38,363 bases of DNA from a virus. Taxonomy: Duplodnaviria; Heunggongvirae; Uroviricota; Caudoviricetes. The stretch is from positions 1-38,363 of IMG/VR virus record IMGVR_UViG_2541047946_000018; one strand, given 5' to 3'. The notes beneath the pieces are model-generated. The model saw only the letters and a program-made list of their open reading frames with translations. It had not been told where the DNA came from and did not search any database. Shown here piece by piece: positions 1-38,363 of the stretch. How positions within the stretch are numbered: position 1 is the stretch's first letter; each line of letters opens with the position of its first letter. Both the position numbers and the translations under genes were made by a program.

Positions 1-183
1 CGTACAGCCAATCTTTGGAGCAATGGAACAAATTGTCGCCCATTGTGAGTCATATTCGCCCTGACTTTCCAGAACCATACGGACTGCCCGTTGACGGACT
101 TCAGGGGAAAAACGAGTATTTTTAGTCATCCTGTTTACCTCTTTCTCAGGAAGTTTAGTCTCCAGGATTCCCGGGGCGGTTCA
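1..183 (-). mobile_element. IS629-like (IS3 family) insertion sequence, partial copy running off the left window edge; terminal inverted repeat ends at 183
   Basis: Bases 1..183 are the exact reverse complement of 11808..11990, the left end of the full IS copy, including the terminal TGAACCGCCCCGGG repeat and the orfA start. Confidence 0.85.
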
Positions 184-1076
184 GCTTGCCACGCGGCCCA
201 GTCTATTGACTGAGATAATGAGTCAACAAAAGGATATAAGGATTTTGCTTCAGAAATTGAAGAAAACCTCTCAGATAATGGATGATATTTCCCATCCCCA
301 ATTGCTCCGAATTGTTTTACATTTAAGAAAAGAGCATTGTTTTCATGCTGAGTTATAGTTACAGCCCCGGCAAATGGCTGCCTTACACCAATTAATGCAT
401 CACCTTTTCCTTCTCCTGCGCTAGATAATTGCAGAAGAACATCTGCGGCACTGCCAGAAGGCACAGGTACACCTATAGGTTTACCATTGACGATACCAAT
501 GACAGTTTCTTCCAGTAAATGAACTGGAGGAAGTGGTTCAATAAAATTATCTGGAACCCGTAATGTCCTGTTAATATTCACATTAACAATATTATCAACA
601 TAATTCTTTGTAGCTGCATCTTGAGGCTTGGAAGGATCGCGCAAATTGCGGATGTAATTATTCAAGGCATCGTAATAGTTTGCCACAAATGATGGTTTGC
701 GCAGCGCCAGGCTAAACCAACTGCGGACTTGCTGTATCAGCATCGTCAGCTTATCTAACGCGTCTTCATGCACCTCAGCGAAAAACTTTCCCTGATTTCG
801 CAGATCAGTTTCCTGCGTAACCGGTAGCTCTCGTGATATAGAAATCTGATAACCGTTAGCTAACGCCTTCGACAGAATTACATTACCGCCATTATATCCA
901 CCAGCCCCAGTGACAGTGTAATCAGTATCAAGAGCCAGCACAGCGATATTTTCGTCAAGGTCAACCACCTGTACTGCCAGATCAGATTCCTTGAAAACCC
1001 TAAAGGTATACGGAAATGATGTCGTAACGCCGTTACCTGTGTATTCGTTGTGGTCAACTTCGGTTGAGACCGTCAT
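184..1076 (-). pseudogene. T7 gp17-like tail fiber/tailspike, N-terminal about 297 codons only; C-terminus replaced by IS sequence
   Basis: ATG at 1076 with GGAG RBS. N-terminus (YTGNGVTTSFPYTF...TDYTVTG) resembles the T7 gp17 adapter domain; a pectate-lyase-type beta-helix start motif (FGAIGDGK) follows. The frame runs into the IS at 183 and stops at 135 inside it. Confidence 0.7.
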
Positions 1077-1179
1077 GTTAAATCTCCAGATAGTCGCAGC
1101 ACCCGTTGCGCCGCATATCTGGTTATTCTATTACCTGAAAAACCACATATGGATAGAAAGGGTGTGAATACGAACAGAT

Positions 1180-1196
1180 ATTACCTTTCAGGTAAT
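1180..1196. promoter_or_regulatory. 17-bp palindromic operator ATTACCTTTCAGGTAAT (consensus ATTACC-N5-GGTAAT)
   Basis: Perfect inverted half-sites; same motif as the tripartite site between cro-like and cI-like genes. Associated AACCACATA element at 1142..1150 and half-site at 1128..1133. Confidence 0.6.
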
Positions 1197-1234
1197 TTGC
1201 AAAACGTGCTGGATAGCAAACAAATTATTTGATA

Positions 1235-1250
1235 CTGTATAAATATACAG
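1235..1250. promoter_or_regulatory. LexA (SOS) box CTGTATAAATATACAG overlapping the -10 region of the downstream plus-strand gene
   Basis: CTGT-N8-ACAG with AT-rich spacer, one mismatch from the E. coli consensus CTGTATATATATACAG; 21 bp upstream of ATG 1272. Confidence 0.7.
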
Positions 1251-1271
1251 TTATTGCATGGAGAAGATAAG

Positions 1272-1529
1272 ATGCAGCAGTATCACTATCCACTGGAAGA
1301 CGGATTTACCGAAAGGATTCACACGCCGGGAGGCGTCAGGTCACTGGTGGAGGGATCGCACTTGATGAAATTACTCCGGGATCTCGATAAGGATGGATTT
1401 AATGTCGATGGCCCACTTGCCGAACTGACTGCACTGATTAACTACGTCACCAGCTCACAGATGTCTATGCGGGATCTGCAAACACATCTCGACTATTGTG
1501 CCGAACAATTACGAAAACAAACCCGGTAA
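1272..1529 (+). CDS. Small antirepressor-like protein, homologous to the C-terminal domain of the Bro-N protein at 2913..3605; likely SOS-induced
   Basis: ATG 1272 preceded by GGAGAAG RBS (the ORF track starts at TTG 1254). About 40 percent identity by eye to the Bro-N C-terminus (LMxLL..L..DG..V.G..AELT....Y.......LRD[IL]QTH..Y). Confidence 0.6.
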   Translation: MQQYHYPLEDGFTERIHTPGGVRSLVEGSHLMKLLRDLDKDGFNVDGPLAELTALINYVTSSQMSMRDLQTHLDYCAEQLRKQTR

Positions 1530-1553
1530 ATTTAAAGGCCGCAAGAGCGGCCA

Positions 1554-2060
1554 TTAACAGTCGTAAAATTCCGGGTCCCACAAACTTGCATCGCGCGGCA
1601 TGGATTCTAAATTTTTCAGCCGCAAAATTCTGTCACACTCGACAAGAAGTTTTTGTTTTTGTTCGTCAATTTCTACTTTTTTGTGTGCTGGCTCATCCCA
1701 GTAATCCAGAAGAAACGCATGTCGCTCAGACGTTACAAGATAAATCACATACACATCACTGGTTGGTATTTTTTTATGCTTGTTGGTGGTCTTGTCTTTC
1801 TTCCCGGATGCCCAGTTTTTCCAGCATTGTTCCGTACCGCTCTCACCAAACTTGTCAGTATAGTTTCCGATGTTTACGTGAACGTGGCGTATGTGATATT
1901 CCAGCATCTCTTTCGGTGGATCCCGAAACAGAGTGTCCTTTCCGAAATCCTTATGATGACCGTAGCGCCAGTGATCTATGAACGCGTTTTTGATAGGTAT
2001 TAGCTCAGGGTCCTTCCCAAAAATTCCAGGGTGAACCAACCCCTGGAATTTATTCAGCAT
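1554..2060 (-). CDS. YafO-like putative toxin (mRNA interferase family), paralog A
   Basis: ATG 2060 overlaps the upstream gene's stop by 11 nt. Shares HWR[YH]GHH, GKDTLF, HVHVNIG, TEQCW and YWDxPAH motifs with the paralog at 4049..4561; resembles E. coli YafO from memory. Confidence 0.55.
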   Translation of the reverse strand: MLNKFQGLVHPGIFGKDPELIPIKNAFIDHWRYGHHKDFGKDTLFRDPPKEMLEYHIRHVHVNIGNYTDKFGESGTEQCWKNWASGKKDKTTNKHKKIPTSDVYVIYLVTSERHAFLLDYWDEPAHKKVEIDEQKQKLLVECDRILRLKNLESMPRDASLWDPEFYDC

Positions 2061-2469
2061 CGTCGTAGAGCTCCTGAGCCATATCTTCGGCAGTGCGTGC
2101 AAACATCCTGCGCGAGATTGCATGAGATTTCTCGACGGACATCTTTGGGACCTCATGCATAACATTTTTGGGAGTTGTGTAATAGCCTATTACAATTTTC
2201 ACACCTGACTTATGATTAATATCAGCATAATATACTTCTTGTTCAGACGTTTCACGACGAACATAATCTGCCAGTTTTCCACATTTAAATTCCCCTCCCT
2301 GATGTTTTAAAATCTCCTCAACTGCACTATTTTCAGTGAAATACCGAATAAGAAATTTCTGTCCAGTCTCTTCAGCATGAGGTATAACAGTATTATTGGA
2401 AGCCCGAACAATGGCCTTACTCAATATTTCATGGTCTTTATTTTTTTCTGATTTCCTCAAATGCTGCAT
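2050..2469 (-). CDS. Small basic partner protein of YafO-like paralog A (putative antitoxin), acidic C-terminus
   Basis: ATG 2469 with GAAGAGAG RBS (track ORF starts at TTG 2505). N-terminal region similar to the partner at 3736..4062; not YafN-like. Confidence 0.45.
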   Translation of the reverse strand: MQHLRKSEKNKDHEILSKAIVRASNNTVIPHAEETGQKFLIRYFTENSAVEEILKHQGGEFKCGKLADYVRRETSEQEVYYADINHKSGVKIVIGYYTTPKNVMHEVPKMSVEKSHAISRRMFARTAEDMAQELYDDAE

Positions 2470-2504
2470 TACTGTAGCTCTCTTCGTGTTCACGGGCCCC
2501 CCCA

Positions 2505-2521
2505 ACTACCTCTAGGGTAAA
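2505..2521. promoter_or_regulatory. Operator-like site ACTACCTCTAGGGTAAA (one mismatch), just downstream of a candidate sigma70 promoter for the minus-strand module
   Basis: On the minus strand TTGCCA-18 bp-TAGAAT precedes this site, 36 bp upstream of ATG 2469. Confidence 0.45.
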
Positions 2522-2629: not shown

Positions 2630-2646
2630 ATTACCTTTGCGGTAAA
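2630..2646. promoter_or_regulatory. Operator site ATTACCTTTGCGGTAAA with AACCACATA element at 2590..2598
   Basis: Near-consensus palindrome in the divergent intergenic region between the minus-strand module and the Bro-N gene. Confidence 0.55.
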
Positions 2647-2723
2647 TTTACATCGCACTCCTCTTGTGCCATAGTAATCGGGCACTGGCAAAATCCAGTG
2701 CCGGGATTGGTCTCCCGGATTAC

Positions 2724-2870
2724 TACAGAGGCACATATGCCGCATAAGCGGTTTTTTTATGTGTAAAGCGCACCTATTCTATGGTGGGCTGTGTGGGGGC
2801 ACCGAAAGGTGCGCCGGGTTCCTTTGTAGCCGGTAAGACCAACTCTGCACAGTTCACCACCATCTGATTG
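2724..2870 (+). repeat. Conserved non-coding element, copy A (Bro-N leader), homologous to 22221..22360
   Basis: Shared blocks GGCACAT..GC..CG.ATA.GCGG, GGGGCACC, GTAGCCGG and TTCACCA in the same order and similar spacing in both copies; several hairpins (GGCACTGG/CCAGTGCC, CCGGGA/TCCCGG, CCGC-ataa-GCGG followed by T7). Confidence 0.4.
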
Positions 2871-2912
2871 GTCTCAGCGGTGGTGATTAACCTAACTACA
2901 AAGGTGATCGCC

Positions 2913-3605
2913 ATGAATACCAAACCTTCCATCTTTTCCTTTGAGTCATCCTGCCAGATCCGTATGTTCATGATTGACGGAGAACCTTGGTTTGTCACCA
3001 AAGATGTGTGCAATGCTTTGAATATTGATGTTACACAAGCGAGAAAACTTGATAAAAAAGGCTGGAACAAAAAGGGGCTGTATTCAATACAGACCCCTGG
3101 TGGAATACAAGAACTATCCATCGTTTCAGAATCAGGTCTCTACATCCTTATTCTGCGTTGCAAAGAGGCAATGACTGAGGGAACGAGAGCATTCAGATTT
3201 CTTGAATGGGTTACAGGTGAGGTTCTTCCTCAGATCCGCCGCACCGGAAGTTACATTAAAAACTCGCTCCCGCAGGAAGAACGCATAAAGATGGTTGCCG
3301 ACCAGGTAGCCAACGCCACAGCATCAGCAGTGATGCAGGCAATGAAGATAGAGAACAAAACCTACAGCGCCCCGCTGAAGCCCGGCTACCGTAGCCTGAT
3401 TCATTCTCCGTCTGGTGTTCTCGGCCTGACGGAGAACTCACTGCTGATGAATCTGCTGAACCAGTTACAGGAAGACGGGCACGACGTATCGGGCGCGGCG
3501 GCGGAGCTGACCACCATGTTCTGCTACATCGTTGGTGTGAGCAAATGCCTGCGTGATATCCAGACGCACGCGGAGTACATCAACGACAAGGCAGGGTTCT
3601 TCTGA
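2913..3605 (+). CDS. Bro-N domain antirepressor-like protein
   Basis: ATG 2913 with AGGTGA RBS. N-terminal Bro-N signature (IRMFMIDGEPWFVTKDVCNALNI); C-terminal domain homologous to the 1272..1529 product. Confidence 0.7.
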   Translation: MNTKPSIFSFESSCQIRMFMIDGEPWFVTKDVCNALNIDVTQARKLDKKGWNKKGLYSIQTPGGIQELSIVSESGLYILILRCKEAMTEGTRAFRFLEWVTGEVLPQIRRTGSYIKNSLPQEERIKMVADQVANATASAVMQAMKIENKTYSAPLKPGYRSLIHSPSGVLGLTENSLLMNLLNQLQEDGHDVSGAAAELTTMFCYIVGVSKCLRDIQTHAEYINDKAGFF

Positions 3606-3735: not shown

Positions 3736-4062
3736 ATGACAAAACTTGGATTCGTGATGAGAGGTCCGGTAAGAAGCGGAACTCATGCAAAGCGTAGCAA
3801 GAGTCGTATTTTTACTGGTAAGGTTGTAGCACGTAAATCAGCTATTGGCTCGTTCAATAGTGAAAATGCGGCATTGCGCCATATTTTTATCAGCACAAAG
3901 CCAAGAGCATCCGCTGATGTGCATACAATGTCTATTCCTATCACAAAGAATATAAAGCGGATAAAAAAGCTCTCATCTGCAGAATCAAAAGAGATATCTT
4001 TCCGCCAGCTTAACTCATTAGAAACGCATATGAAGGAAGAGGAATTCGATGTTTTTGAGTGA
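3736..4062 (+). CDS. Small basic partner protein of YafO-like paralog B (putative antitoxin), acidic C-terminus
   Basis: ATG 3736 with GGAG RBS; stop overlaps the downstream start by 14 nt. Confidence 0.5.
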   Translation: MTKLGFVMRGPVRSGTHAKRSKSRIFTGKVVARKSAIGSFNSENAALRHIFISTKPRASADVHTMSIPITKNIKRIKKLSSAESKEISFRQLNSLETHMKEEEFDVFE

Positions 4063-4561
4063 GTATAGCGGGAAGGTTATACCTACTGGTGAGTTTAAAA
4101 CTGATGACTTTCTGATTTCGCTAAAAGATGCTTTTAAACAACACTGGCGTCATGGTCATCATCCTGATCTGGGAAAAGATACTCTTTTTGAAAGACCAGA
4201 GGAAGTATTAGGCTTCCATCTCAGAAAGGTTCATGTCAATATTGGTGAATATGCATCATATTCATACTCATGTACTGAACAGTGTTGGGATGAGTGGTCA
4301 TATGGATTGATTGATGAACAAGGAAATTACAGGCCAAAACCAACCAGTAACGCATATCTCATATATGCAGTCAATGAAATAAGAGATGCAGCCTTACTAG
4401 CTTATTGGGACCCGCCCGCACACACCAAAGCTAACGCAAAAGTTTGGATGGATTCCGTATTGAATTTCACAAAATTATTTCATGAACGAACGAATACAGC
4501 TCCACTTAGTAGAAATGTTTATCCGTGGGATTATTCGTACAAATCCAAAAAGCCTGCATAG
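4049..4561 (+). CDS. YafO-like putative toxin, paralog B
   Basis: ATG 4049 with GAAGGAAGAGGAA RBS; same motif set as paralog A. Confidence 0.55.
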   Translation: MFLSEYSGKVIPTGEFKTDDFLISLKDAFKQHWRHGHHPDLGKDTLFERPEEVLGFHLRKVHVNIGEYASYSYSCTEQCWDEWSYGLIDEQGNYRPKPTSNAYLIYAVNEIRDAALLAYWDPPAHTKANAKVWMDSVLNFTKLFHERTNTAPLSRNVYPWDYSYKSKKPA

Positions 4562-11790: not shown

Positions 11791-11861
11791 CTGGCGTCCG
11801 GATGTAGTGAACCGCCCCGGGAATCCTGGAGACTAAACTTCCTGAGAAAGAGGTAAACAGG

Positions 11862-12188
11862 ATGACTAAAAATACTCGTTTTTCCCCTGAAGTCCGTCAA
11901 CGGGCAGTCCGTATGGTTCTGGAAAGTCAGGGCGAATATGACTCACAATGGGCGACAATTTGTTCCATTGCTCCAAAGATTGGCTGTACGCCGGAGACTC
12001 TGCGTGTCTGGGTTCGCCAGCATGAGCGGGATACCGGGGGCGGTGATGGAGGGCTCACCACCGCTGAACGTCAGCGTCTGAAAGAGCTGGAGCGTGAAAA
12101 TCGTGAACTGCGCCGCAGTAACGATATCCTTCGCCAGGCTTCCGCTTATTTTGCGAAGGCGGAGTTCGACCGCCTCTGGAAAAAATGA
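11862..12188 (+). CDS. IS629 OrfA (IS3-family transposase N-terminal HTH part)
   Basis: [31 protein letters not shown]...; recognised IS629/IS3411-type OrfA; A6 slippery run at its 3' end. Confidence 0.85.
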
Positions 12189-13075
12189 TGCCACTGCTGG
12201 ATAAGCTGCGTGAGCAGTACGGGGTCGGACCGCTATGCAGCGAACTGCATATTGCCCCGTCAACGTATTACCACTGTCAGCAACAGCGACATCATCCGGA
12301 TAAACGCAGTGCCCGTGCGCAGCGCGATGACTGGCTGAAGAAAGAGATACAGCGCGTATACGATGAAAATCACAAGGTATACGGTGTGCGTAAAGTCTGG
12401 CGTCAGTTGTTACGGGAAGGTATCAGAGTGGCCAGATGCACTGTGGCACGTCTCATGGCGGTTATGGGACTTGCCGGTGTTCTCCGGGGTAAAAAGGTCC
12501 GTACGACCATCAGCCGGAAAGCCGTTGCCGCAGGCGACCGCGTAAACCGTCAGTTCGTGGCAGAACGACCTGACCAGCTGTGGGTGGCTGATTTTACTTA
12601 CGTCAGCACATGGCAGGGCTTCGTCTATGTGGCGTTCATCATTGATGTGTTTGCCGGATACATTGTGGGGTGGCGGGTCTCATCGTCCATGGAGACGACA
12701 TTCGTGCTGGATGCACTGGAGCAGGCGTTATGGGCCCGTCGACCGTCCGGCACGGTCCATCACAGTGATAAAGGTTCTCAGTATGTATCGCTGGCCTACA
12801 CACAGCGGCTTAAGGAAGCCGGATTACTGGCATCAACAGGAAGTACAGGCGACTCGTATGACAACGCGATGGCGGAGAGCATCAATGGTCTTTACAAAGC
12901 GGAGGTAATACACCGTAAGAGCTGGAAAAACCGTGCAGAAGTGGAACTGGCCACACTCACGTGGGTGGACTGGTATAACAATCGACGATTGCTGGAAAGG
13001 CTGGGCCATACTCCTCCGGCAGAAGCAGAAAAAGCTTATTATGCTTCCATCGGAAACGATGATCTGGCAGCCTGA
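12185..13075 (+). CDS. IS629 OrfB (transposase catalytic DDE domain)
   Basis: Overlaps orfA in the -1 frame; rve-type integrase core by family knowledge. Confidence 0.85.
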
Positions 13076-13135
13076 GTTCACAGATAAAATACTCTCCAGG
13101 AAACCCGGGGCGGTTCATAGTAGGAACAACAGGCA

Positions 13136-22462: not shown

Positions 22463-22539
22463 GTGGCATTAGCTCAGTTGGACAGAGCAACCGCCTTCTA
22501 AGCGGTTGGTCGCAGGTTCGAATCCTGCATGCCACGCCA
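22463..22539 (+). tRNA. tRNA-Arg (anticodon UCU), argU-like
   Basis: Cloverleaf: acceptor GTGGCAT/ATGCCAC, D-arm TAGCTCAGTTGGACAGAGC, anticodon stem ACCGC/GCGGT with loop CTTCTAA, T-arm GCAGGTTCGAATCCTGC, discriminator G plus CCA; close to E. coli argU. Confidence 0.9.
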
Positions 22540-28150: not shown

Positions 28151-28849
28151 TCACTCTCCTTTGATGCGAATGCCAGGGGCGCGTGGCACATTAACTTCCA
28201 CGATGCGCACAGTTGGTTTGTACATCTCAATCGCAGTCAGCCAGTCAGCGCCAGTCATGCGCTTTTCTGCATCGCCATTAGTCCACTTAACCGGTACACC
28301 AATAGCCTTCATCGCGATTTCTATTTCCCCGGCAATGGCGCTTTTTCCGCAACCAGTAAAACCAGATACAACGACCAGAACTTCACCTTTGGCTGGTTTT
28401 ATTTCCCGCTCCTCTAGTTCAGCAATGCGCTTACTCCCATCCGAGATAACACCTTCGTAATACTCACGCTGCTCGTTGAGTTTTGATTTTGTCTCCTCAA
28501 GCTCAACTCTCAGCTTCCCAACCGTAAGCGCAATATCCTCGTTCTCCTGATCGCGGCTTTTGATGTATTGCAGGTTTCTTTCCCGTTCATCCAGCAGTGC
28601 CAGCACGGTAGCTGGATTGGCTGCGGCGATGAATTCAGCATTGGCCTGCTGCTCCATTTGGAAATCTTCATAGAAACGGCTTTCTGGATGCGCTCCTTCA
28701 ATTCTGCAAATGGGAATATATCCAGCAACTTCACGATGAATTAGTGCATCATCACCATCAAATCGGCCATCTCCATATTCGAGCGACCACTCGCCACACG
28801 TTGCTTTCTCTGCCGCCTCACGCAGTGCCTGATAGTCAATCTTGCTCAC
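28151..28849 (-). CDS. Ead/Ea22-like protein
   Basis: N-terminus MSKIDYQALREAAEKAT..W and coiled-coil middle typical of lambdoid Ea22-like proteins, from memory. Confidence 0.5.
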   Translation of the reverse strand: MSKIDYQALREAAEKATCGEWSLEYGDGRFDGDDALIHREVAGYIPICRIEGAHPESRFYEDFQMEQQANAEFIAAANPATVLALLDERERNLQYIKSRDQENEDIALTVGKLRVELEETKSKLNEQREYYEGVISDGSKRIAELEEREIKPAKGEVLVVVSGFTGCGKSAIAGEIEIAMKAIGVPVKWTNGDAEKRMTGADWLTAIEMYKPTVRIVEVNVPRAPGIRIKGE

Positions 28850-31764: not shown

Positions 31765-31995
31765 TCATGAGTAGAAGAAGTATGCCAGTTCCGCTTTTGA
31801 GCGCAGCCATTGTCTTGTTTTACAGGCTTTAAAAAGCCCATTCATCAATACCTTACCTGGCATTTTGCGCTTACCTGTTAAGTGAGTCTGGATATAGTGA
31901 CTCGTCGTTCCGGCTTCCTGTGCGAAGGCTTCACGCTCATCCGGAGTAAGTGCAAGCCAGTGCTTTTTGAAATCGAAATGTCCGTTATCGCTCAT
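31765..31995 (-). CDS. Cro-like HTH regulator
   Basis: 76 aa with HTH (FAQEAGTTSHYIQTHLTGKR), divergent from the repressor gene across the operator region. Confidence 0.6.
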   Translation of the reverse strand: MSDNGHFDFKKHWLALTPDEREAFAQEAGTTSHYIQTHLTGKRKMPGKVLMNGLFKACKTRQWLRSKAELAYFFYS

Positions 31996-32030: not shown

Positions 32031-32095
32031 TTCACCCATAAGGTAACAAAAATCAAGGATAGTTACCTATGGGGTGCATTTACCTGTTGGGTAAT
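32031..32095. promoter_or_regulatory. Immunity operator region with three operator sites between cro-like and cI-like genes
   Basis: Sites at 32031..32047 (TCACC-N5-GGTAA), 32062..32078 (degenerate) and 32079..32095 (TTTACCTGTTGGGTAAT). Confidence 0.7.
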
Positions 32096-32149: not shown

Positions 32150-32734
32150 ATGAAAAGTATCCAGGACGTCCGCAGGCAAAATCTCAACGACTTGATCGAC
32201 CGTGAATTCAATGGTGTTCAGACGCGGATGGCTGAAAAACTTGGAACTCAGGCAAATCTGGTAAACCGCTGGGCTCTTGGCAAGAAGGTTATCGGCGACC
32301 AGGTTGCACGAAAAATTGAAGCTGCCGCCAATAAACCCCGTAACTGGCTTGATATCGATCGCTCGCTTTCTCAGGAAGGTTTTCAGCCTGTCGGCCCAAG
32401 CGACATTGGCCAGCTGGCGGCTCACAACCTGGAACGCTGGATGAGCGAAAGCCGCGACCTTTCAACACAGGGAAAACTTCACCGCGCATCCGGCGTAGCC
32501 CAGGTGACAATCAGCCGCCTGTTAAACAATGAGGTCAGCGTTTCCATTTCCACCCTGGAGAATGTTGCATCCGCATTCGGGCGTCACGGCTATGAATTAC
32601 TGATTCACCCGCACGACCCTGCGACCATCAACTATGATCGCTCGCGCTACGCATTGTTACCCGAAACCGAGAAAGCAAAGATCGAAAGTTACATTGAATT
32701 TGTCATCAACCAGAACGAAAAAAACAAACAATAA
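32150..32734 (+). CDS. CI-like repressor with two HTH domains and no recognisable S24 autopeptidase domain
   Basis: Two XRE-type HTH segments; no GDSM/Ser-Lys dyad region; position between the operator clusters. Confidence 0.6.
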   Translation: MKSIQDVRRQNLNDLIDREFNGVQTRMAEKLGTQANLVNRWALGKKVIGDQVARKIEAAANKPRNWLDIDRSLSQEGFQPVGPSDIGQLAAHNLERWMSESRDLSTQGKLHRASGVAQVTISRLLNNEVSVSISTLENVASAFGRHGYELLIHPHDPATINYDRSRYALLPETEKAKIESYIEFVINQNEKNKQ

Positions 32735-32780: not shown

Positions 32781-32800
32781 TGCCTATTCGATTACCTAAC

Positions 32801-32870
32801 GGGTAATTTTTTTAACTCATATCTATTGACATCAAACCATATACGCATAATTATTACCTCAACGGTAACA
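32801..32870. promoter_or_regulatory. OL/PL-like region: operator sites at 32801..32817 and 32854..32870 flanking a TTGACA -35 hexamer
   Basis: ATTACCTAACGGGTAAT and ATTACCTCAACGGTAAC; TTGACA at 32825..32830; extra half-site GGTAAC at 32877..32882. Confidence 0.6.
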
Positions 32871-37106: not shown

Positions 37107-38363
37107 TTATTTATTACTGTCTTCCATCCACCTCTCAAACTTCGACGGGGAGAACGGAATCAGATCCGTATGCTCCCCGTTAATCCAGGAATCAATCATA
37201 TCGGCCCACTGCTGCAACATGTAGGCGCGCTGTCTGGCGTATTCCGCTTTGTTATATACGGCGCGCACACCTTTCTGCTCATGTGCCAGAGCCTTTTCAA
37301 TCCAGTCTGAAGGATAACCAGCCTCATGCAACAACGTACTTGCTGTACGGCGCATATCGTGTACGGTGAAGTCCTGAATATGCTCACCATCTTCATTTAT
37401 TATTTTCACCGTTCTGTCGATCAGAGAGTTCAGCGCGGCATTAGATAATGGCTTCCGGAAATTGTAACGACCAGGAACCAGATATTCACTTCCACCAGCG
37501 CACATCTGCAACCCAACCAATATATCCTGTGCCTGTTTAGGCAGGTAAATAACGTGCGCCCGGCTTCCCTTCATGCGGTCTGAAGGAATTGTCCATGTCC
37601 ATTTTTTAAAATCTATTTCATCCCACGTTGCATTGGTGAATTCGCCTTTACGAACCATAGTGATAAGCACCAGCTTTAAAGCCATTTTCATAGTGCCCAT
37701 AGCACCAATGGCATCCAGCGTGCGGAAGAACAGGCCAATTTCTTCTGGTGTCAGTGTTCGCTCTCGTGGTTTAAATATGGCGATAGACGAAGGTTTAATG
37801 TCAGCAGCAGGATTAAACAAACCATGACCACGGTCATTGGCATGACGGTATACGCTGCTGATGATCTCCCTGGCCTGCACTGCTGTTGCCCGGCCGCCGC
37901 GTTCGACAATCCGGTCACACAAATCACGAACCATCGATGTGGTAATTTCAGCCATCATTTTGTTACCAAGAACAGGAAGTATGTCACGGTCGATCACCGC
38001 CTGCTTCATTGCGCGGGTACTGTCAGCCAGGATGACGTGTTTCATATAACTGTCGGTATGTACCGCAAACGTCTCGGCACCACGAATCTTTTTGATACCG
38101 TCACGTTTAGCCGCAGCCGGTGACTGGCCTGCTTTAAGCAGCTTCTTTGCAGCAATCAGTTCTTCTCGCGCTTCTGCCAGGCTGATACCGTCACGCCCAT
38201 ACTGCCCAATTACCAGTGTTTCGCGGCGACCGTTGATACGGTAGTCATAGCGAAACGAGACCGTACCTGACGTAAGCACAGCTACATACAGCCCGTCACG
38301 ATCGGAGACCTTGTACAGTTTGTCCTGCGGCTTGAGGTTTTTTAATTTTGTATCGGTAAGCAC
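37107..38363 (-). CDS. int: Tyrosine integrase (P4/CP4-57-like), N-terminus at the window edge
   Basis: N-terminal LTDTKLKNLKPQDKLYKVSDRDGLYVAV arm-binding signature; ORF reaches the last base of the window. Confidence 0.85.
   Translation of the reverse strand: MLTDTKLKNLKPQDKLYKVSDRDGLYVAVLTSGTVSFRYDYRINGRRETLVIGQYGRDGISLAEAREELIAAKKLLKAGQSPAAAKRDGIKKIRGAETFAVHTDSYMKHVILADSTRAMKQAVIDRDILPVLGNKMMAEITTSMVRDLCDRIVERGGRATAVQAREIISSVYRHANDRGHGLFNPAADIKPSSIAIFKPRERTLTPEEIGLFFRTLDAIGAMGTMKMALKLVLITMVRKGEFTNATWDEIDFKKWTWTIPSDRMKGSRAHVIYLPKQAQDILVGLQMCAGGSEYLVPGRYNFRKPLSNAALNSLIDRTVKIINEDGEHIQDFTVHDMRRTASTLLHEAGYPSDWIEKALAHEQKGVRAVYNKAEYARQRAYMLQQWADMIDSWINGEHTDLIPFSPSKFERWMEDSNK

Follow-up and report, generated by a model that had tools for sequence, protein, structure and literature searches.

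Genomic context of the ant locus

The window, meaning the whole stretch of 38,363 nucleotides that was analysed, runs from a tailspike gene at one end to a tyrosine integrase gene at the other and is therefore a prophage of the ε15/phiV10 type, an Escherichia coli member of the genus Uetakevirus. The DNA around the ant locus is 95-99% identical to that of the E. coli podoviruses phiV10, TL-2011b, phiv142-3, vB_EcoP_ZX5 (ZX5), and PAS61, all of which belong to this genus. The small gene ant lies between the tail/structural operon and the tailspike gene, from which it is divergently transcribed across an intergenic region of 195 nt (1077..1271), and its position is syntenic with that in SPC32H, phiV10, ε15, Tyrion, and BUCT554. 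DNA of the locus (1150..1530) was matched in 529 of 5,426 complete E. coli genomes, and the RefSeq rows that were examined call the gene product a 'hypothetical protein'. The features at and around ant, together with the far end of the window, are as follows.

135..1076, minus strand: tailspike gene, at one end of the window
1180..1196: palindrome ATTACCTTTCAGGTAAT of 17 bp, putative Rep operator, between the tailspike gene and ant
1210..1238, plus strand: putative ant promoter, with -35 TGGATA (1210..1215), a 17-nt spacer, and -10 TACTGT (1233..1238)
1233..1252: near-consensus LexA (SOS) box TACTGTATAAATATACAGTT, which spans the -10 and the region of the start site of ant
1272..1529, plus strand: ant, with an ATG start, encoding an 85-aa antirepressor that is the orthologue of SPC32H Ant by identity and by PDB and PHROG matches
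1537..1552: GC-rich hairpin, probable terminator, between ant and a convergent YafO-like gene
37107..38363: tyrosine integrase gene, at the other end of the window

A LexA box over the putative ant promoter

The LexA box ends 20 nt before the 85-aa open reading frame and has CTGTATAAATATACAG (1235..1250) as its core. The pattern CTGT-N8-ACAG occurs three times in the window (0.54 expected), and the copy at 1235..1250 is the only one that carries an AT-rich spacer and TA/T flanks. Its heterology index is 1.7-2.05, on par with the strongest chromosomal boxes, as scored with a matrix built from 20 E. coli SOS boxes, and the values are approximate. The runner-up site in the 38 kb scores 9.7 and the lowest value in 50 shuffles was 7.35; with an index of about 2 against 9.7, this SOS box is the only credible one in the window. 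The scan found no further box with an index below 9.7 near the Bro-N gene (2913..3605, described below) or elsewhere in the window, and a candidate second box at 28708 (index 9.7), which is without the CAG arm, was rejected. The sequence-only reading of this DNA had placed a near-consensus SOS box at the promoter of the small open reading frame and proposed scoring by heterology index as a check; both the location of the box, over the putative -10 hexamer, and the distance between its score and that of the next site bear this out.

An alignment of the tailspike-ant intergenic regions of eight phages of E. coli, Salmonella, Enterobacter, and Klebsiella retains four blocks, namely the palindrome ATTACC-N5-GGTAA(T/A), CTGGATAG, the LexA box, and GGAG-ATG. 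Box, promoter layout, and gene position are conserved across the eight genomes; the box is kept in phiV10, SPC32H, ε15, Tyrion, and BUCT554, and both aligned Klebsiella genomes have ATGT where the others have CTGT. The hexamers TGGATA and TACTGT are invariant or nearly so in the eight Uetakevirus genomes. They are weak hexamers, and a consensus promoter scan returned no match for them; as judged from the sequence, TGGATA-17-TACTGT is a plausible ant promoter whose -10 would be the left arm of the LexA box. The same overlap is found in p95, the annotated SOS promoter of the phage 186 tum gene, where the box TACTGTATGTTTATACAGTA is almost equal to that of SPC32H. An alternative promoter starting from TTGCAA at 1197, which abuts the palindrome, was rejected since its would-be -10 region is unconserved. 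Downstream of the promoter, a GGAG motif lies 8-12 nt upstream of the ant ATG. The hairpin at 1537..1552, directly 3' of the ant stop on the plus strand, was called by the scan as a terminator-like site of the minus strand.

A larger sample of box sequences was available from IMG/VR, in which 79 loci were retrieved through the Bro-N module and ant is present in 70 of them. A perfect CTGT-N8-ACAG stands 39-40 nt before the ATG in 65 of these 70 loci, and the copies of the box differ in the spacer only, which indicates selection on the box arms. Among the remaining five loci, one has an interruption upstream of the box, and the box is truncated in two others, in one case because the retrieved locus begins there and in the other by unrelated sequence.

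Ant and its probable partner repressor

Ant is 86.7-87% identical to SPC32H_020, an 'anti-repressor protein', and the GenBank record of SPC32H (KC911856) annotates the orthologous genes as ant and rep. The protein also matches chain E of PDB 5D50 ('Anti-repressor protein', E=1.4e-46) and phrog_450 (7e-48), a PHROG marked 'unknown function'. No Pfam family was found for Ant, and a sub-threshold match to Pfam DUF724 was regarded as spurious. Ant is narrowly distributed: tblastn against 50,697 phage records gave 35 matching records, all of the Uetakevirus type, and a profile search of 1.84 billion representative proteins gave only 60 clusters. In a protein homologue search, the best 120 of 147 matches were stand-alone Ants and short N-terminally extended variants (142 aa or less); fusions to large N-terminal domains surfaced only in the profile search of representatives.

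The repressor gene and its surroundings, at the opposite side of the window, include the following features.

31765..31995, minus strand: Cro-like early regulator, divergent (phrog_35, 5.6e-13), syntenic with SPC32H_042
32079..32095: palindrome TTTACCTGTTGGGTAAT, in the rep-cro intergenic region
32150..32734, plus strand: rep, two-domain repressor of 194 aa (PDB 5D50_A and 5D4Z; Pfam)
32791..32807 and 32853..32869: further copies of the palindrome, downstream of rep

Rep matches chain A of PDB 5D50 ('Repressor') over residues 1-190 (E=4e-42), and its C-terminal domain has an HTH_3 fold that matches PDB 5D4Z. Pfam places HTH_3 at residues 106-147 and a weaker HTH-type match at residues 21-61, residues 1-76 have PHROG matches to regulators, and a Pfam search gave no match to Peptidase_S24 at E<=0.01. 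A CI-like repressor with two helix-turn-helix domains and without an S24 region, as had been read from the sequence, is thus what the domain searches return. Self-cleaving repressors of the lambda CI/LexA type, in contrast, have a C-terminal Peptidase_S24 domain.

With its matches to chains E and A of 5D50, the window thus codes for the two members of a repressor-antirepressor complex that has been crystallised. Ant and Rep co-occur in essentially the same ~35 phage records, all of the Uetakevirus type. Rep of the window is 100% identical to Rep of phiV10 and ZX5 and 42% identical to Rep of SPC32H (53% in the N-terminal domain); with Rep at 42% and Ant at 87%, cognate Ant-Rep binding is an assumption for the allele of the window.

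The 17-bp palindromes are candidate binding sites of Rep. The motif ATTACC-N5-GGTAAT, allowing up to two mismatches, occurs 15 times in the window (1.09 expected) and 18 times in SPC32H (1.01 expected), where it clusters at equivalent places, and in the window its copies are almost always intergenic. The copy upstream of ant is kept in eight phages, and the GenBank record of ε15 annotates the equivalent palindrome as 'protein_bind: repressor'; a literature search for the palindrome as an operator gave no relevant paper. Since the putative operator near ant lies ~57 nt upstream of the probable ant start site, it could add a layer of control beyond a simple LexA model.

A probable SOS antirepression circuit

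The match of Ant and Rep to the SPC32H pair, together with the conserved box, promoter layout, and gene position, points to the LexA-Ant-Rep circuit already published for SPC32H. That this switch is real in the window and equals the SPC32H circuit is very probable, and its properties in SPC32H (binding of LexA, binding of Ant to Rep, and disassembly of Rep) would by analogy carry over to this E. coli phage. Rep, incapable of self-cleavage, would hold lysogeny, while host LexA, bound to a strong box over the -10 and start-site region, would keep ant silent. Upon DNA damage, RecA-stimulated cleavage of LexA would free the ant promoter. Ant would then be made and bind Rep; in SPC32H, an Ant tetramer splits the DNA-binding Rep tetramer into dimers. 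Rep would leave its operators and the prophage would be induced.

The SPC32H Rep/Ant/LexA antirepression system is reportedly the subject of Kim and Ryu in 2013 (J Virol 87:11775) and of Kim et al. in 2016 (PNAS 113:E2480), with the structures PDB 5D50 and 5D4Z. The switch is thus already known, having been published and structurally solved in the same virus genus. Of the papers that cite this work, one describes for these Salmonella phages that an antirepressor is produced once LexA cleaves itself and that it blocks the lytic repressor through direct contact between the two proteins (PMC7380047), and two others describe a tetrameric Ant that binds two Rep dimers and breaks the Rep tetramer (PMC9638917; bioRxiv 2025.11.27.690993). 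ZX5, whose Rep is identical to that of the window, is inducible by mitomycin C (PMC9782041).

SPC32H resembles the window in most respects: it belongs to the same genus, its Ant is 87% identical, its Rep is homologous over the full length, its ant gene is divergent from the tailspike gene with a LexA box at the same distance from the ATG, and 17-bp palindromes are found at the rep-cro region and upstream of ant. It differs in that its Rep has diverged (42% identity), whereas the host of the window phage is E. coli, and in lacking the accessory cassette that lies downstream of ant in the window (an isrK-like RNA, a C4 RNA, a Bro-N::Ant-like protein, and two YafO-like modules). The same logic, with a LexA-repressed small antirepressor that inactivates a non-cleavable repressor, is known from 186 Tum and from Gifsy-1, Gifsy-3, and Fels-2 (Shearwin 1998; Lemire 2011, PMC3121763). 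The layout of the 186 promoter, in which the left arm of the box (TACTGT) is the -10, is also that of ant, and the likeness is one of functional analogy only: Tum has a DinI-like part that Ant is without, and the repressor families differ as well. The sequence-only reading had proposed a route from LexA to an antirepressor acting on a non-cleavable repressor, which agrees exactly with what experiments established for the orthologues in SPC32H and with the Rep-Ant complex in PDB 5D50. It had likened this route to that of the Gifsy prophages and 186 Tum; the shared logic stands, but the direct counterpart is the SPC32H orthologue, and homology to Tum was not detectable.

A probable second antirepressor with predicted RNA control

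A second locus lies downstream of ant, and its features are as follows.

2630..2646: palindrome ATTACCTTTGCGGTAAA, second copy of the palindrome upstream of ant, abutting the promoter-like site at 2647..2675
2647..2675, plus strand: promoter-like TTTACA-17-CATAGT, which would start the isrK-like RNA
2682..2758, plus strand: isrK-like Hfq-binding sRNA/leader with an intrinsic terminator (Rfam RF01394, 74.7 bits against a gathering threshold of 50)
2777..2864, plus strand: C4-type antisense RNA of the P1/P7 immI type (Rfam RF01695, 78.6 bits against a gathering threshold of 45)
2821..2829: C4 loop CCTTTGTAG, exact complement of CTACAAAGG
2836..2842: C4 bulge AGACCAA, exact complement of TTGGTCT
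2868..2874, plus strand: C4 target TTGGTCT
2896..2904, plus strand: C4 target CTACAAAGG, covering the Shine-Dalgarno sequence of the Bro-N gene
2913..3605, plus strand: large accessory antirepressor, consisting of a Bro-N domain (~aa 16-106), a linker, and an Ant-like module (~aa 147-230; nt 3351..3602)

The large protein has a Bro-N domain (Pfam, 1.8e-13) and matches phrog_130 ('anti-repressor Ant') as well as phrog_450. BLASTP aligns Ant with residues 149-222 of this protein (43% identity over 74 aa, E=1e-16), confirming the homology that had been read between the 85-aa protein and the Bro-N protein C-terminus; across comparisons, identity with the module ranges from 39 to 43%. The claim that the SOS-controlled protein is a stand-alone domain of a larger antirepressor holds with respect to homology and is better reversed with respect to which form is basic, Ant being the core gene and the fusion the accessory. 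Free Ant is present in every Uetakevirus record (~35), whereas the fused form is found in a subset, always beside free Ant, and is absent from SPC32H, ε15, BUCT554, and BUCT711. A frameshift shortens the phiV10 copy, whereas the full length of 231 aa is seen at nine related loci. At least four different heads (Bro-N, AntA, Phage_pRha, and ORF6N) occur in fusion with the module. At the E. coli loci, conservation of the module is at least 99%, while the N-terminal part before it switches among five or more sequences. Among the 50,697 phage records, the module is found only in genomes that also encode a Uetakevirus Rep. In the large protein, an accessory one, variable N-terminal domains are thus joined to an Ant-type module, and its gene would have RNA-based control of its own.

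An experiment on a close relative exists. The Bro-N protein is 81% identical to ORF4 of ZX5, and residues 104-230 are identical; like the window, ZX5 has the identical Rep and the same isrK/C4 leader. Overexpression of ORF4 lowered the number of lysogens from 1e9 to 1e6 (1000-fold) and rep mRNA by 75% (Li et al. 2022, PMC9782041). The authors regard ORF4 as the sole antirepressor of ZX5, and the small Ant, LexA, SPC32H, and the RNA elements go unmentioned in their paper.

Transcription from the promoter-like element is predicted to start near 2682, which is also where the Rfam isrK match begins. The isrK/C4 pair is at the same place in phiV10, phiv142-3, Tyrion, Kp4865-1, and ZX5, and the C4/isrK leader was counted in six further phages. 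Complementarity between C4 and its targets is maintained while the sequences change: in other phages the loop and target read CCTTTTAG and CTAAAAGG, or CCACTTAG and CTAAGTGG. Loop and target fall into three classes (40, 24, and 12 loci) across 84 loci, with zero mismatches where both are readable, and bulge and target covary in all 77 loci with a C4 (AGACCAA with TTGGTCT, ACGCCAA with TTGGCGT, and GTCTCAA with TTGAGAC). At the level of sequence, this double covariation of loop and bulge with their targets is the signature of the c4-ant system of P1/P7 immI.

In P1/P7 immI (c4 antisense RNA, icd, ant), as in the window, C4 has two single-stranded segments with one downstream pairing site each, and the ribosome-binding site is one of these two. 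The locus likewise parallels isrK-orf45-anrP of Gifsy-1, in which an isrK leader controls the translation of an antirepressor-like protein (PMC4825925). The window differs from P1 and Gifsy-1 in that no upstream open reading frame like icd or orf45 was identified and the C4 target covers the Shine-Dalgarno sequence of the antirepressor itself; in the interval from C4 to the ATG at 2913 no separate short open reading frame is evident, and there is an in-frame TTG at 2868. The effector is also of another kind, an Ant-type module in place of the P1 Ant and AnrP types. With an isrK-like leader, a C4 RNA that pairs with the ribosome-binding site, and no LexA box, the Bro-N gene would by this analogy most likely be a P1 immI-like 'anti-immunity' input on the same Rep.

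Alternative explanations

Two other roles for the LexA box and its gene deserve consideration. The box is palindromic and lies inside the 195-nt divergent intergenic region, together with a putative Rep operator, so it might mainly control the divergent tailspike/late unit, or act in both directions, with the small open reading frame as a passenger. This is very unlikely. The tailspike start is 157 nt away from the box, against just 20 nt for the ant ATG; the box shares sequence with the conserved rightward -10, and the promoter scan gave no leftward promoter over it. The orthologous product, moreover, has been demonstrated to be an antirepressor and has a co-crystal structure. Even less probable is that Ant is an SOS modulator of the DinI/Tum family, acting on RecA or LexA and not on the phage repressor. 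Ant does share with Tum and the DinI-like prophage genes that it is small, phage-encoded, and controlled by LexA, and the 186 record annotates tum as DinI-like, but a single pairwise BLASTP comparison of Ant with 186 Tum gave no significant similarity (E=0.056, 30% over 47 aa with gaps). The family holds only 60 clusters among 1.84 billion representative proteins, every large member that was scanned against Pfam has an antirepressor-type architecture, and the orthologue was crystallised in complex with Rep. The LexA-Ant-Rep switch thus remains the preferred reading of the small gene.

For the large protein, the Ant-like module could be an oligomerisation (tetramerisation) domain only, borrowed for a DNA-binding Bro-N regulator, common in fold to Ant and not sharing Rep as its target. 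The heads Bro-N, AntA, Rha, and ORF6N are generally regarded as N-terminal domains with a role in DNA binding or regulation, the identity of Ant to the module is only 39-43%, and SPC32H Ant is tetrameric (PMC9638917), so that part of the conserved surface serves self-assembly. Against this, the module is confined to genomes with a Uetakevirus Rep among the 50,697 phage records, and in E. coli phages with identical Rep it is at least 99% conserved while at least five N-terminal domains have been swapped before it. Overexpression of ZX5 ORF4, whose C-terminal half is identical, also reduced lysogens 1000-fold and lowered rep mRNA (PMC9782041). A module that only oligomerises is accordingly considered unlikely. 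The Bro-N protein would instead use its Ant-type module on the same Rep, under the control of C4, as an anti-immunity input.

A possible two-input control of one repressor

Combining the two loci suggests, tentatively and at somewhat less than an even chance, that in ε15/phiV10-like prophages of E. coli a single repressor receives two inputs through a Rep-binding Ant fold that is used twice, once as the free, LexA-gated Ant and once as the isrK/C4-gated effector of a Bro-N, AntA, Rha, or ORF6N antirepressor, giving heteroimmunity in the style of P1/P7. Ant and the Bro-N protein would then have a common effector module and different sensors (LexA versus a C4 antisense RNA). At least three C4 specificity classes exist among phages whose Rep is the same; immunity would therefore fail against a superinfecting phage from a different class, since the resident C4 would not act on it and its antirepressor would be expressed. 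As far as found, the literature holds no description of this antirepressor paralogy, of its separate sensors, or of three C4 classes under one Rep.

The central result is a rediscovery of an induction switch that had been published, and it brings an annotation and not a concept. The new value is modest and consists in joining two literatures, that on the small Ant of Salmonella phages and that on the Bro-N 'anti-repressor' of E. coli phages, the sole experimental paper on an E. coli member (PMC9782041) having overlooked the small ant locus. If the two-input reading is true, it would amount to P1/P7-style heteroimmunity in a podovirus, and the Ant fold would be the portable 'repressor-binding' half of the long-enigmatic Bro/AntA/Rha antirepressor architectures. 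Its confirmation would show what the C-terminal half does in a class of Bro-N/AntA/Rha proteins and would explain how these common prophages combine SOS induction with anti-immunity.

Annotation and conservation of the antirepressor

An orthologue of ant, the gene for the 85-aa antirepressor (1272..1529; locus 1150..1530 of the window), is carried by 529 of the 5,426 complete E. coli genomes in RefSeq, and among the E. coli RefSeq entries listed it is named 'hypothetical protein'. The corresponding protein family, PHROG 450, is marked 'unknown function', and Pfam holds no family for Ant. Despite a crystal structure dating from 2016, Ant is an annotation gap. Between the E. coli and Salmonella phages, Ant retains 87% identity, whereas its target, the two-domain repressor Rep (32150..32734), retains only 42% (53% in the Rep N-terminal domain). 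In the two Klebsiella phage genomes of the genus Uetakevirus that were aligned (L005 and L006, ~2460..2490), the SOS box of ant carries ATGT rather than CTGT in its left arm, a degenerate half-site; judging from this alignment, LexA control of ant may be weaker or altered in the Klebsiella phages.

Accessory genes and mobile elements

The large Bro-N antirepressor gene is preceded by two RNA elements and flanked by two gene pairs in inverted arrangement:

1554..2165 with 2050..2505, both (-), YafO-like gene with overlapping small ORF
2682..2758, isrK-like sRNA, upstream of the Bro-N antirepressor gene
2777..2864, C4 antisense RNA, upstream of the Bro-N antirepressor gene
3736..4062 with 4049..4561, both (+), YafO-like gene with overlapping small ORF

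The two YafO-toxin-like genes are paralogous (phrog_1651; the Pfam YafO match is weak), each is preceded by its overlapping small ORF, and the pairs are probably two toxin-antitoxin morons. For the C4 RNA, covariation of two C4-target pairings was observed in three classes across ~80 loci. In phiV10 (L001, 5743..6422), a frameshift truncates the 'putative anti-immunity protein' p23 (194 aa) inside its Ant-like module, and the remainder is annotated separately as ORF p22; the intact 231-aa form of p23 occurs in nine related IMG/VR loci.

Other elements lie in the structural, late and integration regions:

~11808..13119, IS3-family insertion sequence, between two prophage tail/structural genes
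11862..12188, IS3-family orfA
12185..13075, IS3-family orfB
12143..12259, ALIL frameshift pseudoknot (120 bits) in the IS3-family element
22463..22539, tRNA-Arg, anticodon TCT, late region
37107..38363, tyrosine integrase ORF, reaching the window's final nucleotide

The IS3-family element, which presumably resembles IS629/IS1203, has the terminal inverted repeats TGAACCGCCCCGGG; its insertion may be polar on the downstream structural genes and could leave the prophage defective. The late-region tRNA-Arg (TCT) is shared with the Salmonella phage SPC32H. For this phage type, the study of E. coli phage ZX5 (PMC9782041) locates attB at the 3' end of guaA.

The putative Rep operator

The 17-bp palindrome ATTACC-N5-GGTAAT is strongly over-represented in the window (15 sites versus 1.09 expected), and SPC32H contains 18 sites (1.01 expected).

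Palindrome 17-mers, starts in the window: 1180, 2505, 2630, 3678, 22125, 22742, 25644, 25662, 29686, 29748, 31694, 32079, 32791, 32853

Nearly all sites are intergenic, often with an adjoining -35-like hexamer; late genes, lysis genes and morons are among those with a site upstream. A copy precedes each YafO-like pair, and one lies ~57 nt upstream of the inferred ant start site. The GenBank record of ε15 labels the palindrome a repressor-binding site. The E. coli and Salmonella phages share this palindrome as their putative operator even though Rep has diverged between them. If Rep binds every one of these sites, repression would be genome-wide, in the manner of 'stoperators'.
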